Of a DNA stretch of 64,000 bases, positions 117 through 63,580 are shown piece after piece. The DNA is from a virus (taxonomy: Duplodnaviria; Heunggongvirae; Uroviricota; Caudoviricetes). The DNA lies in the IMG/VR virus record IMGVR_UViG_3300029983_000009, positions 1 through 64,000 of that record. The stretch is one strand, 5' to 3'. A model generated the notes under the pieces. It searched no databases and had not been told where the DNA came from. It saw nothing but the letters and a program-made list of their open reading frames with translations. A program made the position numbers and the translations under genes. The first letter of the stretch is position 1. Each line of letters opens with the position of its first letter.

Positions 117-344
117 ATGAACATAAATGATTATGAAGATTATAAAAATTTAGAGAACGAATTTAGCAAATTAAAATCAAAATTCAATAAAATTTACAAT
201 GAAAATAACGAATTGAGATTTTATAATGATAAAATACATTCTTATTTATCAAATACAAAATTAGTGTTAAACGATATAGATTTCAATATAATAGAATCTT
301 ATGTACGTGAAACTAAATTAAATAGAATAAATGAAAAGCGATAA
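117..344 (+). CDS. small protein, family A (C-terminal IESYVRETKLNRI tail)
   Basis: ORF track; ends with the [I/L]ExY[LV]RKxKLxx[LI] motif shared by many ORFs in the window. Confidence 0.5.
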   Translation: MNINDYEDYKNLENEFSKLKSKFNKIYNENNELRFYNDKIHSYLSNTKLVLNDIDFNIIESYVRETKLNRINEKR

Positions 345-651
345 AGAATATTATGAATTAGAACGTCGTTATCTCAAATTGACTGATAAATTTGATAACA
401 TTTATTCAGATCATATTAAAATTGAACAATCATTGAGAACTAATTATGATGAAGCATTAAGGCAACGCAACACATCAAGAAATGAATTTTATAAATTAGA
501 AAATGAGCATAAAAATTTGAATTATTTTTTTGATGAACTAAATAAAAATTTTACTGATCCAAAATTTGTTCTACCACAATTAAATATCATAGATATTGAA
601 AATTATCTAAGAAAAAAGAAATTAGAAATTTTACAATATGGAAAAAAATAA
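331..651 (+). CDS. small protein, family A (…IENYLRKKKLEIL tail)
   Basis: ORF track; C-terminal tag motif; overlaps neighbouring genes by a few codons. Confidence 0.55.
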   Translation: MKSDKEYYELERRYLKLTDKFDNIYSDHIKIEQSLRTNYDEALRQRNTSRNEFYKLENEHKNLNYFFDELNKNFTDPKFVLPQLNIIDIENYLRKKKLEILQYGKK

Positions 652-907
652 AAAAAGCATTAAAATAATATCAGGAGTAGATTTTGATGAATATGAGAAA
701 TTAAAAGATAAATACGATCACATATTTCGTGAATATATTAGTACATTACATGAATTCAATTTAGTTGAAAATGAAAGAGATGCATTAGAGATAGAAGTTG
801 AATCTTATAAAAAATTATTAAAAAATCCTAATAAATTATTAGAAACCATTAAATTAAAAGATATTGAAAATTATCTAAGAAATAAGAAATTAGAAAAATT
901 AGATTGA
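638..907 (+). CDS. small protein, family A (…IENYLRNKKLEKLD tail)
   Basis: ORF track; C-terminal tag motif. Confidence 0.55.
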   Translation: MEKNKKSIKIISGVDFDEYEKLKDKYDHIFREYISTLHEFNLVENERDALEIEVESYKKLLKNPNKLLETIKLKDIENYLRNKKLEKLD

Positions 908-1143
908 TGAAATATTACAAAAAAGAGAAAAATATTGAATATAGAACTTATAACAAAGATCATATAAATTTATGCTCTTGTAAAAACAAGCCAACAATAA
1001 ATACTCATATATTATCTATAAATTGTTGGAAATTTTGCACCAATTTTATAGAAAAAGGAAAAGATGACAATGGAAATTGGATTGAGTGTAAATATTATAC
1101 ATCAAAAATCAGAAAAGATAAAATAATTTTATTGAATAATTAA
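904..1143 (+). CDS. Cys-rich small protein with IRKDKIILL tail
   Basis: ORF track; CSCKNK…CWKFC cysteine cluster; basic tail. Confidence 0.45.
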   Translation: MMKYYKKEKNIEYRTYNKDHINLCSCKNKPTINTHILSINCWKFCTNFIEKGKDDNGNWIECKYYTSKIRKDKIILLNN

Positions 1144-1147
1144 TGTT

Positions 1148-1423
1148 ATGATTGGACATGCAAATTATTTAATTAGTAGAGATAATATAAACAAAGAAGA
1201 ATACGAATTTTTTCTTAATAAAATTGACATTGATATAATATCAAAATTTATATGTCATGTAAAAAATAGAATTTCTATATTAGATTATAAATGTGAAATG
1301 GTAGGAATAGATTTTGAATACACTGAATATATTTCTATGTGCTTTATGGATTTCAATTATATTGAATGTTATTTTACAAAAAAGTCAAGAAAAATTAAAT
1401 TAGTTACATTGAATAATGATTAA
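1148..1423 (+). CDS. hypothetical protein (tail SRKIKLVTL)
   Basis: ORF track. Confidence 0.45.
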   Translation: MIGHANYLISRDNINKEEYEFFLNKIDIDIISKFICHVKNRISILDYKCEMVGIDFEYTEYISMCFMDFNYIECYFTKKSRKIKLVTLNND

Positions 1424-1679
1424 TTATTATTATTTTAATAGAGGAGATAAAGTTGTTTGCATAAATGAAGATAGTGAATTGTACAATAAAATATTCATTA
1501 TTTCATCCACAATATATCCATCATTTAATAACAATGGAATGAATATATTTCTTAGATTTGAAAAAAATAATAATACTATAGATATAAACTTTGAATCTTC
1601 AAATTTTATTAAATTAAAAAAAATTAGAGAATTAAAATTATTAAAATTAAAATATTATGACAGAAAGACAAATGTTTGA
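1416..1679 (+). CDS. hypothetical protein (tail IRELKLLKL)
   Basis: ORF track. Confidence 0.45.
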   Translation: MINYYYFNRGDKVVCINEDSELYNKIFIISSTIYPSFNNNGMNIFLRFEKNNNTIDINFESSNFIKLKKIRELKLLKLKYYDRKTNV

Positions 1680-1854
1680 GAAATCATTTCAGAGACCTTC
1701 AAATTACTTTAAATTAACACCAAGAAGTCAATGGGAAATTGATGATGATTTAGGAATATTGGACTGGTGTGGTGAAGATTTATCTGATGATGATAGAATA
1801 AGATTTACTAATCATTATGACAAAAAAATTAAAAAGTCAGATAAATTAAAATAA
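1657..1854 (+). CDS. hypothetical acidic protein
   Basis: ORF track. Confidence 0.4.
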   Translation: MTERQMFEKSFQRPSNYFKLTPRSQWEIDDDLGILDWCGEDLSDDDRIRFTNHYDKKIKKSDKLK

Positions 1855-1917
1855 CTATATGTTTTATTTGTATAATTCAAAAAAAAATATTATCTTTGAT
1901 AATATAAAAAAATAATT

Positions 1918-61364: not shown

Positions 61365-61772
61365 ATGAAAAAGAAATTTGTATCATTTTTTAGTGGTGAA
61401 ACTTTTGAAGAAGAGTTTAATCTTCATGATATTAGTAAATATGATGTCTTGTATCATGTAACTACTAAAGATAGAATTGAGAATATTAAAATTGATGGAC
61501 TAAAAATTAATCAACCGCAATATAAATCAATTGTTGAGACAGGAATGCTATTTTTTTCATATCCTATAACCCATACTACTGGAGATATGTTTAGATATTA
61601 TGATGATTCATATATAGTTGCAATAGATACCCAAGAATTGATTAAAGATGGTATCATTTTTTATGATGATAGTTTTTCAGATCAAGATATGTCATCTAAT
61701 AGAAATCATTTGTGTTGTGAGGTTGATATACCAGTTAAATATATAAAAAAAATTATTGAACCATTTGAATAA
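61365..61772 (+). CDS. hypothetical protein, possibly 2H phosphoesterase-like (two H-x-T motifs)
   Basis: LYHVTTKD and YPITHTTGD spaced about 48 aa apart; weak. Confidence 0.3.
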   Translation: MKKKFVSFFSGETFEEEFNLHDISKYDVLYHVTTKDRIENIKIDGLKINQPQYKSIVETGMLFFSYPITHTTGDMFRYYDDSYIVAIDTQELIKDGIIFYDDSFSDQDMSSNRNHLCCEVDIPVKYIKKIIEPFE

Positions 61773-62088
61773 CATTATGAAAAAATTGAAAATTGAAAAA
61801 ACTATCTTTACTAAGCATTTAGATAACTATATCACATGGAAAGACTTGAAACATTTACAATTTCAGGATGATGATATCATAAATATTGAATACATAGAAC
61901 CTATGTGTACAACTGATTATGAGCATGATGGATATTTCTATTTAGAGGTTAATAGAATGATAGAAGAAACAGATGAACAGTACAATAAGAGAATGATAGA
62001 AACACAGAAATCTAAAGATTTATTGAAAAAAAATAGATATGAAAGATTTCTTGAACTTAAAAATGAATTTGAACCTGATAATAAATAA
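61756..62088 (+). CDS. hypothetical protein
   Basis: ORF track. Confidence 0.5.
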   Translation: MNHLNNIMKKLKIEKTIFTKHLDNYITWKDLKHLQFQDDDIINIEYIEPMCTTDYEHDGYFYLEVNRMIEETDEQYNKRMIETQKSKDLLKKNRYERFLELKNEFEPDNK

Positions 62089-62092
62089 TAAA

Positions 62093-62584
62093 ATGTTTGA
62101 CGAATTATTAACTACTTCTATGACTAAATATATTGATAAGGTGTTTACCAATTCTTTTAAAAAAGAATGGTACACAACTTATTGGGTTATAGATTTACAT
62201 TCAACTGTAATAAAATCCAGTTATAACTTAAATGATAATCAGTTTGAGTTTTATCCTTTTGCAAAAGAAGTATTACAATTATTAACAGCAAGAAATGATA
62301 TTCATATTATAATGTGGACATCATCATATCAAAATGAAATTGATAATTATATCAAAGAATTTGATAATAATTATATTCATTTTGATAATATAAATGAAAA
62401 TCCAAACATCTCATCGAATAATGGAAATTTTGGTTTCTATGAACAAAAAATGTATTTCAACGTGATCCTAGATGATAAGGCAGCGTTTTTTCCAGATTCA
62501 GATTGGGAACCACTTTATAATTTATTGAAAAAATATGAAGAGGAAAATTATTTACCTAATCCAAAATGGACTACAAAATTTTAA
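62093..62584 (+). CDS. HAD-like hydrolase (tentative; start moved to internal ATG)
   Basis: WVIDLHSTVIK (motif I-like), MWTSS (motif II-like), NVILDDKAAFFP (motif IV-like). Confidence 0.35.
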   Translation: MFDELLTTSMTKYIDKVFTNSFKKEWYTTYWVIDLHSTVIKSSYNLNDNQFEFYPFAKEVLQLLTARNDIHIIMWTSSYQNEIDNYIKEFDNNYIHFDNINENPNISSNNGNFGFYEQKMYFNVILDDKAAFFPDSDWEPLYNLLKKYEEENYLPNPKWTTKF

Positions 62585-62592
62585 ATGATTAA

Positions 62593-62916
62593 ATGAGTTC
62601 AATTCACATATTTAATAAAGGAGATCATATAGTTAGAACAGAGAGATCTCATGGAGATGATGGATCATATATGGGAGAAGAAATGATATTTTTAGGAATA
62701 CTAAATAATAGAATTTATATTATGTTTACTTGTACTAGAAAAACAATTTTTCCTAATCTTAAACATGATTTCAATTTAAGTGAGTGGCAAGATGGCTGGG
62801 AATATTATGTTAATCCTAATATCTTAATAGATGATGATTTTTTAGATAATATTGATATAGATATCATTGAGAGATATTTAAGAAGAAAAAAAATAAAAAT
62901 ATTAAAAAATAAATGA
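62593..62916 (+). CDS. family A protein (…DIDIIERYLRRKKIKILKNK)
   Basis: ORF track. Confidence 0.5.
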   Translation: MSSIHIFNKGDHIVRTERSHGDDGSYMGEEMIFLGILNNRIYIMFTCTRKTIFPNLKHDFNLSEWQDGWEYYVNPNILIDDDFLDNIDIDIIERYLRRKKIKILKNK

Positions 62917-63114
62917 CATGGAACAAGAAAAGAAATTATATAATCTTGAAATATCTGGAACAGATAACATGAGGATTGAAAGATATCTAACTGATTCTGA
63001 ATATAAATTAATTCACGGTATATTTGAGGAACTTCAAACTAAATATGAAGGTGTTTCTATTGAAGAAGGACCAATTGATTGGAAAATAGGACTATAATTT
63101 AAAACTAATATAAA

Positions 63115-63348
63115 ATGATAAAAAATGGTGATGTATTGATTTGTATTGAAAATATTACTCCAATAATTGGAGTTGGTGCTTTTTTACCACTTTTAAAACC
63201 TTTACATGTGAAATTAGTAACTGATGATGTATTGATTATTTTTGAAGAAATAAATGATAATTTTTTTATGATGAAGCATCATAAATTTATTACATCATCT
63301 GAATATAGAAAACTAAAATTGACAAATTTGAATGATAAAACCTGGTGA
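63115..63348 (+). CDS. family B small protein (MIKNGDVLICI… …SEYRKLKLTNLNDKTW)
   Basis: ORF track. Confidence 0.5.
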   Translation: MIKNGDVLICIENITPIIGVGAFLPLLKPLHVKLVTDDVLIIFEEINDNFFMMKHHKFITSSEYRKLKLTNLNDKTW

Positions 63349-63580
63349 TGTGATATTTTGTATAGAAAATAAAAATTCAGATACTTGTTTTACTAGAAAA
63401 TTACCACTATTCACTCCTTTACATATTAAATTTATAGATATTAATGAATTTAGATTTGAAGTAGAAGAATTTGAAAATCATCTTTACTATATTAAATTTC
63501 ATACATATCTTACATTATATGAATATAGAAAATATAAAATAATTAAATTAAATGAAAAATCTAATAAAGAAAATTATTAA
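63332..63580 (+). CDS. family B small protein
   Basis: MIKPGDVIFCI… …YEYRKYKIIKLNEKS. Confidence 0.5.
   Translation: MIKPGDVIFCIENKNSDTCFTRKLPLFTPLHIKFIDINEFRFEVEEFENHLYYIKFHTYLTLYEYRKYKIIKLNEKSNKENY

Follow-up and report, generated by a model that had tools for sequence, protein, structure and literature searches.

A recurrent C-terminal helix on small proteins of a huge, AT-rich phage: a candidate docking label

The first 64,000 nt of the IMG/VR virus record IMGVR_UViG_3300029983_000009 (Caudoviricetes), hereafter the window, encode numerous small proteins that end in one short, basic peptide, which we call the tag. About 45% of the open reading frames (ORFs) of the window carry it, a system unusual both in this scale and in the sharpness with which the peptide is conserved. 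Our analysis covered this one stretch and fragments of related genomes. We interpret the tag, at about even confidence, as a portable helix by which early accessory proteins, forming a large and rapidly evolving set, are brought to a single partner that they share.

One C-terminal peptide on many kinds of small protein

The window has a GC content of 21-24% throughout and is packed with small ORFs, overlaps being common. Greedy, non-overlapping selection of ORFs with a minimum length of 40 aa yielded a set of 195, which was searched with a strict motif (R-K-x-K-[LI]-x-x-[LI]) and a loose one (R-x-x-K-[LI]-x-x-[LIV]); matches ending no more than 15 residues from the end of the protein were counted as C-terminal. 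The strict motif occurred in 68 proteins and was C-terminal in 66 of these, while the loose motif occurred in 92 and was C-terminal in 89. From the end of the motif to the stop there are 1-10 aa, mostly 3-7. About three loose matches (4110-4523, 24882-25964 and 52313-52627) are in doubt, leaving ~86 clear tagged ORFs, and degenerate copies of the tag lie at 8692-8928, 20715-21483 and 35420-35665. An earlier note on this DNA had put the number at roughly 100 of ~190 ORFs, which is essentially right, if a slight overestimate, when these degenerate copies are added together with an ORF that is truncated at the left edge of the window. It had also placed the motif at the extreme C-terminus or duplicated just before it, in agreement with the position of 89 of the 92 matches and with an internal half-copy in a transmembrane (TM)-anchored family at 1918-2972.

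With Lys, Asn, Ile and Leu abundant at 21-24% GC, Lys/Leu-rich tails might be expected from composition. In 300 composition-preserving shuffles of each protein, however, C-terminal matches numbered only 0.1 ± 0.3 (maximum 2) for the strict and 0.5 ± 0.7 for the loose motif, and none of 99 shadow or out-of-frame ORFs of the window was tagged. The complete genome of a related huge phage, LR756500 (462 kb, 24.3% GC), contained 0 strict and 2 loose matches in 714 ORFs, although 407 of these measure 160 aa or less, and the unrelated AT-rich viral loci L135, L146 and L183 had 0-1 tags each. A compositional artifact is thereby refuted and retains negligible probability; the C-terminal tag is real and far above chance. 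Among cellular genomes in GTDB, the 120 loci listed as matching the tag-encoding DNA pattern contained no tagged ORF. The listed matches thus appear to be due to chance only and do not identify a host.

To compare the proteins without the shared peptide, tails were removed and the remaining bodies clustered using BLAST and iterative hidden Markov models. This gave ~31 body groups altogether: one SH3/chromo-like barrel superfamily (MFKVGDKVVCI...) with 42 members, 39 of them tagged, and ~30 further separate types. The latter include acidic helical proteins of 60-72 aa, MKDxDIKLN proteins, membrane proteins with two TM segments (2-TM) or an N-terminal anchor, and soluble families of 80-190 aa; TM segments are predicted in 9 of the 89 tagged proteins. 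When the barrel family was aligned with the 'IExYLRKKKL' class using hhalign, only 12 tail residues aligned, which together with the tail-less clustering rules out a single divergent family. The earlier count of at least seven families, thus, understated the diversity. Its statement that the N-terminal parts are unrelated holds between body types and fails within the barrel superfamily, whose 39 tagged members arose by tandem duplication.

Foldseek matched the predicted barrel best to chromo-barrel, Tudor and PWWP structures in the PDB, some with a C-terminal helix, at E-values of 0.12 or worse, suggesting a generic SH3/Tudor/chromo-like fold. Pfam returned no match for any tagged family except for a gp32-like ORF at 19787-20368. 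PHROGs gave a single weak match (E = 2e-5), that of a barrel member to phrog_14634, whose annotation reads DNA-binding protein, and none for the other tagged families. Sequence and fold searches of Pfam, PHROGs and the PDB found nothing for the tag or for nine body types. One metagenome protein of 133 aa, P0002, consists of two tandem barrel domains followed by a single terminal tag, an architecture indicating that array neighbors can fuse with only the last tag kept.

Conservation of the tag follows the protein. Instances aligned on the Arg codon (position 0) were conserved with codon periodicity, the x and wobble positions being free. Codon usage was near background both for this Arg (AGA 77, AGG 7, CGN 2) and for Lys at position 3 (AAA 79, AAG 7), and all six Leu codons were in use at position 4. 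The next start codon follows the Arg codon at 23-52 nt, in all three frames, and stays outside the eight-residue core in every case, so the motif is effectively the functional C-terminus. The trailing 1-10 residues mostly serve as a spacer that accommodates the overlap with the start of the following gene, as where ...KLCSK* lies over ATGTTCAAAG at an MFK... gene. Tight overlaps in the arrays and the constant presence of a start codon within this distance could point to nascent-peptide arrest or coupling for the overlapping next gene, or to an in-frame promoter, ribosome-binding site or recombination element. Background synonymous usage, distances to stop and next start that vary across all three frames and the retention of the tag in four genes without a close downstream gene exclude these options, and many untagged genes overlap likewise; such an element is scarcely credible. 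Selection acts on the peptide, not on the DNA.

How sharply it acts was apparent from 724 homologous pairs of window proteins and ORFs of related genomes at 30-85% identity. Body positions were 20-35% identical in these pairs, as compared to 99% for R0 and 100% for K3; K1 and L4 reached ~77%, and x2 and x5 ~30%. In the barrel-family alignment, the sole invariant columns are the Arg and Lys of the tail. With the remaining motif fixed, the window has 74 Arg versus 1 Lys at position 0 and 73 Lys versus 2 Arg at position 3, in a proteome where Lys is far commoner than Arg, and related genomes have 165 Arg versus 0 Lys and 164 Lys versus 1 Arg, respectively. Arg and Lys are, therefore, not interchangeable at either position, which indicates stereospecific recognition.

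On a helical wheel, R0 (0 degrees), L7 (340 degrees), L4 (40 degrees) and K3 (300 degrees) fall within one arc of ~100 degrees, with x2 and x5 facing away. AlphaFold2 modeled a barrel member (predicted local distance difference test score (pLDDT) 86.8) as five strands followed by a helix at residues 68-82 with pLDDT ~96, and an isolated 36-residue module of another class (pLDDT 86.4) as a helix (9-14), a turn and a second helix (18-35). The invariant residues, thus, share one side of a helix that is predicted with confidence. The tag has a median hydrophobic moment of 0.16 and a mean hydrophobicity of -0.44. Given moments of 0.27 for MinD and 0.57 for FtsA, the low value makes a lipid-binding helix unlikely, and a membrane-targeting amphipathic helix of the MinD/FtsA type was rejected on this ground and because integral membrane proteins are tagged too.

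Homologs of the barrels came exclusively from metagenome contigs that lack annotation and measure up to 346 kb. In 20-kb samples of three other related genomes, 31 of 58, 19 of 57 and 13 of 32 ORFs were tagged, as opposed to the 0-2 of 714 in LR756500. IMG/VR loci were bimodal, with 30-80% of ORFs tagged or none, and the tag-rich ones include jumbo contigs of 208-330 kb. The class-2 module, whose consensus of ~28 residues reads (T)DEEKLDSIDIxVIEKYLRKKKLxxINKK, was also searched for exhaustively with HMMER in 1.84 billion representative proteins, where it recovered 281 clusters (50% identity) at E ≤ 1e-3. The best 150 of these 281 are proteins of 33-131 aa with highly diverse, often low-complexity N-terminal parts. 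The module is C-terminal in nearly all of them and present in two copies in a few (P0109, P0111 and P0184). There was no large or cellular protein among these 150, and we ruled out host mimicry on this basis. Context genes are T4-like, comprising gene 30.3, Y16D, a fused type II topoisomerase and an RNA ligase. The tag system is lineage-wide in huge, AT-rich, T4-related phages and absent elsewhere.

The sequence TATCTTTG, which is of the TAnnTTTG type and fits the Bacteroidota -7 promoter consensus TAnnTTTG, occurs in 15 copies in the window, 8 of them in sense orientation inside ~2.5 kb of gaps that make up ~4% of the sequence. Examples are located at 1891, 15761(-), 17831(-), 36460, 38892, 45798, 49395 and 53326, in short gaps ahead of gene arrays. 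Lipoprotein-like ORFs of the window have ...LFSC lipoboxes, and the hosts of the tag-bearing lineage are probably Bacteroidota. The placement of the promoter-like motifs ahead of the arrays suggests that the tag-rich arrays are probably transcribed by the host RNA polymerase and, thus, early.

Docking onto a common partner and competing explanations

A one-faced helix with fixed Arg and Lys and two Leu residues, set on unrelated soluble and membrane bodies, is best accounted for by a docking or address element. The tag would represent a portable, one-sided recognition helix with the invariant core R0-K1-x-K3-[LI]4-x-K6-[LI]7, which in one class is part of a ~28-aa helix-turn-helix mini-domain, (T)DEEKLDxIDIxxIExYLRKKKLxxINKK. 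It would have come onto more than 30 unrelated small bodies during the evolution of a huge AT-rich T4-related phage lineage and would dock them, on the cytoplasmic side, onto a single macromolecular partner shared by all. Contact would be made through a Leu4/Leu7 patch that has Arg0 at its center and Lys3 next to it. The actual work would fall to the variable heads: barrels whose loops are hypervariable, acidic helical proteins, membrane anchors and an OB-fold. Growing by tandem duplication and transcribed early from host-type promoters, the arrays look like a host-takeover or antidefense arsenal with one address; common-partner docking, arsenal logic and early timing are what we infer from these patterns. 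A docking helix had been mentioned as an alternative in the earlier note, and the modular peptide on unrelated soluble and membrane bodies, selected at the protein level, speaks for it. The same spread over unrelated soluble and membrane proteins supports the view expressed there that the tag is unlikely to be a structural repeat or a secretion signal.

Several points weigh against this interpretation. No partner was identified and no co-varying gene was found, and competition of more than 100 proteins for one partner site would be stoichiometrically odd. Specific nucleic-acid binding would leave the same sequence signature. Furthermore, the C-terminal helix present in chromo-barrel and PWWP matches raises the prospect that the barrel-class helix may pack on its own barrel, in which case part of the conservation there could be structural.

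Conserved C-terminal docking elements are known from the FtsZ C-terminal peptide, the C-terminal tip of SSB (a protein that binds single-stranded DNA) and the SspB XB motif, each of which occurs on one protein per genome, unlike the tag. In the class-2 tag, the register I-x-x-[FY]-L-R-K is the one seen in the FtsZ peptide DIPxFLRK. Compared to D-[IV]-P-x-[FY]-[LM]-R-[RK], the consensus at the extreme C-terminus of FtsZ, it agrees at I(-5), [YF](-2), the hydrophobic residue at -1, R0 and K1. Mimicry of the FtsZ peptide, for which this agreement speaks, is opposed by the lack of the conserved Pro and of any FtsZ counterpart to K3, L4 and L7 of the tag; the barrel class is unmatched upstream of the core.

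In our estimate a modest possibility is a phage-encoded sorting system, of a kind not known so far from bacteriophages, in which a single receptor collects more than 100 small effectors by their C-terminal helix and delivers them jointly. The receptor might be a cage or compartment built by the phage, the interior of the virion, with co-injection of the effectors, or a host protease or other hub. A protease or other hub retargeted by the variable heads would be analogous to the viral F-box/PRANC substrate receptors of eukaryotic viruses. Poxvirus ankyrin/PRANC (F-box-like) proteins and other viral substrate-receptor families comprise many paralogues that combine variable N-terminal target-binding heads with a conserved C-terminal dock to one cellular hub. 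The PRANC domain binds Skp1, measures ~50 aa and belongs to eukaryotic viruses, whereas the tag is a helix of 8-28 aa in a phage, with heads unrelated to each other. These families and the T4 capsid-targeting sequence (CTS) on the polymorphic internal proteins of T-even phages are the closest functional analogs of the tag, which belongs to neither.

Rather improbable, in our assessment, is a specific nucleic-acid-binding helix that tethers its carriers to DNA, of the phage or the host, or to one particular RNA. Its basic character would suit this role, as would the gp32-like fold of one tagged body, which binds single-stranded DNA, the likeness of the barrel to folds of the chromo, Tudor, PWWP and Sso7d types and the match of one barrel member to the DNA-binding PHROG mentioned above. 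However, Arg and Lys do not substitute for each other and the two Leu residues are conserved like the basic ones, which is atypical of tails that contact the backbone. In addition, integral membrane proteins are tagged, and the helix comprises only ~12 residues without a second helix or dimerization motif. Membership in the SAP, HeH or Rho_N families was rejected, as hmmscan (ten module sequences, E ≤ 10) identified no such family and Foldseek no PDB match.

The gp32-like body is the ORF at 19787-20368 (+), a truncated paralogue of this OB-fold SSB that ends in ...SNIIRKEKLKELSNL and is the sole tagged body of a recognizable family. It scores 30.5 bits against gp32 (PF08804), above the gathering cutoff of 26.8, matches PDB entries 2a1k, 1gpc and 8gme and aligns to the T4 and RB69 gp32 structures. 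It lacks the Zn finger, the basic N-domain responsible for cooperativity and the acidic C-domain. Its canonical gp32 relatives are without the tag. The tag, RKEKLKEL, is collinear with K222-DKFKSF-228 of T4 gp32 at the same spacing from the OB core; this T4 segment is located at the junction of helices B and C, at the end of the core domain, and the region ~227-253 has been implicated in gp32-gp32 cooperativity (PMC12893549). Similar segments are present in Aeromonas and Proteus gp32 SSBs and are missing from a cyanophage SSB and the gp32 of LR756500, and Arg0 and Leu4 of the tag are not gp32 features. Since the segment is not conserved in gp32 of LR756500, the nearest complete relative, a derivation of the tag from gp32 is kept as a weak lead suggested by this collinearity. 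The ORF is conserved in related genomes (P0085-P0090), with one orthologue on a 711-kb contig. A search with it returned its own orthologues only and did not find the canonical gp32 of the lineage. The truncated paralogue could be a decoy or a specialized binder of single-stranded DNA.

We consider it improbable that the tag is a cargo-loading or packaging signal directing proteins either into the virion, to be co-injected, or into a shell that the phage builds, for instance a cage like that formed by the major vault protein (MVP). A short C-terminal peptide on unrelated small proteins recalls encapsulin peptides and the logic of the T4 CTS, a short conserved peptide that provides a common address for unrelated small proteins of T4-type hyperplastic regions. 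The barrel class, furthermore, has L-x-E at -4 to -2 of the tag, which resembles a T4 prohead-protease site. However, this L-x-E is confined to the barrel class, tagged proteins with TM segments (9 of 89) could not be soluble cargo and the tag is an ordered predicted helix rather than a flexible tail. TM carriers and the ordered barrel-class helix, thus, disfavor virion or shell packaging as a general explanation. The CTS itself is an N-terminal leader of ~10 aa, cleaved by the prohead protease at an adjoining (L/I)-x-E site and present on a handful of proteins; the tag is C-terminal, helical, carried by ~90 proteins in 64 kb and also found on membrane proteins. Encapsulin and bacterial microcompartment peptides are likewise short terminal peptides on unrelated proteins. 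They are Gly/Ser-rich and hydrophobic or strongly amphipathic, have flexible linkers and are linked to shell genes, as opposed to the basic, predicted ordered R-K-x-K-L-x-K-L of the tag, which does not resemble an encapsulin peptide (LTVGSLKG-like). No encapsulin was detected among the Pfam matches of the large ORFs in a general scan of the window.

The candidate shell gene, which the earlier note had recognized and wished to connect with the tag, was confirmed as an MVP homolog of 819 aa at 4569-7028 (+), with matches to MVP_shoulder (9e-28), Vault_3 and Band_7. MVP-like genes are located inside tag-rich regions not only in the window but also in the related loci L006 (10773-13232), L199 and L200, which would fit a vault-like destination. 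The protein is conserved in this lineage, and its nearest relatives outside it, in annotated collections, were identified in LR756500 (20904-23387, 53% identity) and LR756501/LR756503 (50% for LR756501), from huge phages of 462 kb and 735 kb. As LR756500 is tag-free genome-wide and LR756501 has no tag in 63 ORFs in 50 kb around its MVP gene, the suggested direction of tagged proteins to an MVP shell is not supported, and no other linkage of the tag to a shell gene was found. MVPs have been reported in unrelated gut phages in a 2023 preprint (10.1101/2023.11.10.566534), the sole known report of viral MVPs. Known vault cargo uses an INT (MVP-interaction) domain of ~160 aa and not a short helix (PMC12280208). 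The shared element described here measures 8-28 aa, and many of its carriers are only 55-80 aa long in full.

Somewhat more doubtful still is a degron or timer read by a host or phage protease or adaptor of the FtsH, ClpX or Lon type, by which early proteins would be cleared together. The C-terminal position, the occurrence on soluble and membrane proteins alike, as for FtsH substrates, and the early promoter context would suit such a function, and ClpX tags of the MuA type are basic. Degrons are, however, usually disordered and located at the extreme terminus, whereas the tag is a confidently predicted helix followed by 1-10 variable residues; a MuA-like ClpX C-motif-2 degron was rejected on the same grounds, the core not being at the free C-terminus. 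Formally, a degron is a special case of common-partner docking.

An association of tags with each other, bundling the tagged proteins into a hetero-oligomeric network or condensate, we regard as very doubtful. The tags are near-identical helices, two copies occur in P0109, P0111, P0184 and the 1918-2972 family, and membrane-anchored members could nucleate assembly. Like-charge repulsion is expected, however, for a highly basic helix with an Arg amid a small Leu patch, the hydrophobic moment is only 0.16 and coiled coils normally drift far more in sequence. A monopartite nuclear localization signal, which would lie in an extended, accessible segment of a protein from a virus of eukaryotes and for which the basic pattern K-[KR]-x-[KR] is present, was dismissed in view of the Arg at position 0, the helical segment, the T4-like phage and the Bacteroidota-type promoter elements. 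With no equivalent in Pfam, PHROGs, the PDB or the literature searched, in line with the earlier note, the tag looks like a previously undescribed address or docking label.

Tagged genes and neighboring features of the window

Tagged genes are described here from left to right, on the plus strand unless marked (-). The edge-cut ORF (2-109) ends in ...IENYIRKTKLRKISTK* and is followed by six tagged ORFs (117-344, 331-651, 638-907, 904-1143, 1148-1423 and 1416-1679), mostly of the 'IExY[LV]RKKKL' class, the last being a barrel. Three N-terminally TM-anchored paralogues (1918-2972) each have an internal half-copy, DIExxLKFYKL, and a full terminal tag, IEKYLRKKKIQKL. Fifteen tandem barrel genes at 8241-11690 (-) share the pattern MFKVGDKVVCI...F-I-x-L-x-E-Y-R-K-x-K-L-x-K-L; 14 are tagged and one (8692-8928) is degenerate. 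The three mini-proteins of 58-65 aa at 12108-12669 (-) are barely more than the ~28-aa module LDxIDIxVIESYVRKKKLxxINKK. Next come three 2-TM membrane proteins ending in ...RYLKLKKL (18026-19010, with a fourth member at 29558-29911) and the gp32-like paralogue. In a block at 20375-21985, a tagged protein with a TM anchor (20375-20713) is followed by two paralogues whose tags are degenerate (20715-21483) and by a soluble tagged protein of 165 aa (21488-21985).

One barrel and then six acidic helical proteins of 60-72 aa, the latter ending in ...LRKEKLEKL, occupy 21982-23299; a seventh acidic protein is located at 45130-45342. Arrays of seven tagged barrel genes (23296-24871) and of six genes of an 'MKIGD' barrel subfamily ending in ...EYRKLKLxKLNE (25968-27691) are followed by four 'MKDxDIKLN' proteins ending in ...EDRKIKLKNI together with one barrel (28733-28957) at 27681-28957. 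Nine tagged proteins of 80-148 aa with mixed, mostly unrelated bodies span 31525-34757. Inside this block, an untagged, apparently disrupted barrel gene at 31934-32257 (+) has a barrel-like start, MFKAGDKVYFIKRL..., a different C-terminus and a 55-nt overlap with the next barrel gene (32203-32457), and is probably a frameshifted or decaying barrel copy. The array of seven at 34733-36399 comprises five tagged barrels, a degenerate barrel (35420-35665) and a tagged non-barrel (35655-35954).

Further to the right are a lone tagged barrel (37545-37769), three soluble paralogues of ~110 aa ending in ...IRKLKLEKI (41323-42302), three tagged proteins with differing bodies of 85, 70 and 150 aa (44883-45787) and two tagged paralogues ending in ...IRKDKILEI and ...LRKEKLEEI (48014-48539). 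A lone tagged protein of 66 aa (51483-51683), another lone tagged barrel (54121-54363) and a group at 62593-63580, consisting of a class-2 tagged protein (62593-62916) and two tagged barrels (63115-63348 and 63332-63580), complete the set.

Untagged paralogues were also observed: an array of five very hydrophobic proteins of 57-66 aa at 14445-15378 (-) and a lipoprotein-like pair (MKKLFLFGFCFLLFSC...) at 42740-43353 (+). In the related genome L006, five tandem paralogues of 84-124 aa at 18474-20141 (-) have ...NKFNL or ...NKFNI as their very last residues, a second, different shared C-terminal tail. The same genome has a DnaJ (J-domain) gene at 16484-16963 (-) directly upstream of a class-2 tag array; the syntenic position in the window would be just past its left edge.

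Other genes include two of cytidylyltransferase-like (NMNAT) type (37766-38317 and 58562-59179, +), an RNA ligase with a PHA02142 OB domain (40207-41211) and a calcineurin-like phosphoesterase (50777-51478), which are typical auxiliary genes of large T4-like phages. A tRNA at 31316-31387 (+) has the anticodon CTA, is of the amber-suppressor type and was labeled Pyl by ARAGORN (49 bits for the Rfam tRNA model). A second tRNA of 99 nt at 52193-52291 (+) was called by Rfam only, and two more tRNA-like 3' halves (GGTTCGATTCC...) in the gap at 52628-52825 were called by neither program. Since TAG is in use as the stop of 26 of the 195 window ORFs, any TAG recoding would be confined to other, possibly late, genes.

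Implications for huge phages

Huge phages encode hundreds of small ORFs without known function, and in 64 kb of this one, nearly half are linked by a single peptide. Many such genes may, therefore, act through a single accessible interaction, and finding the receptor would reveal, in one step, where more than 100 proteins jointly act. At 12-28 residues, the peptide can be synthesized, fused to reporters and used as bait; it could become a portable targeting tool in Bacteroidota and, in addition, makes this phage lineage easy to recognize by sequence in metagenomes. Should the heads be target-binding modules, the tagged proteins would be the phage equivalent of the arsenals with which poxviruses and giant viruses combine a variable head and a common docking tail.

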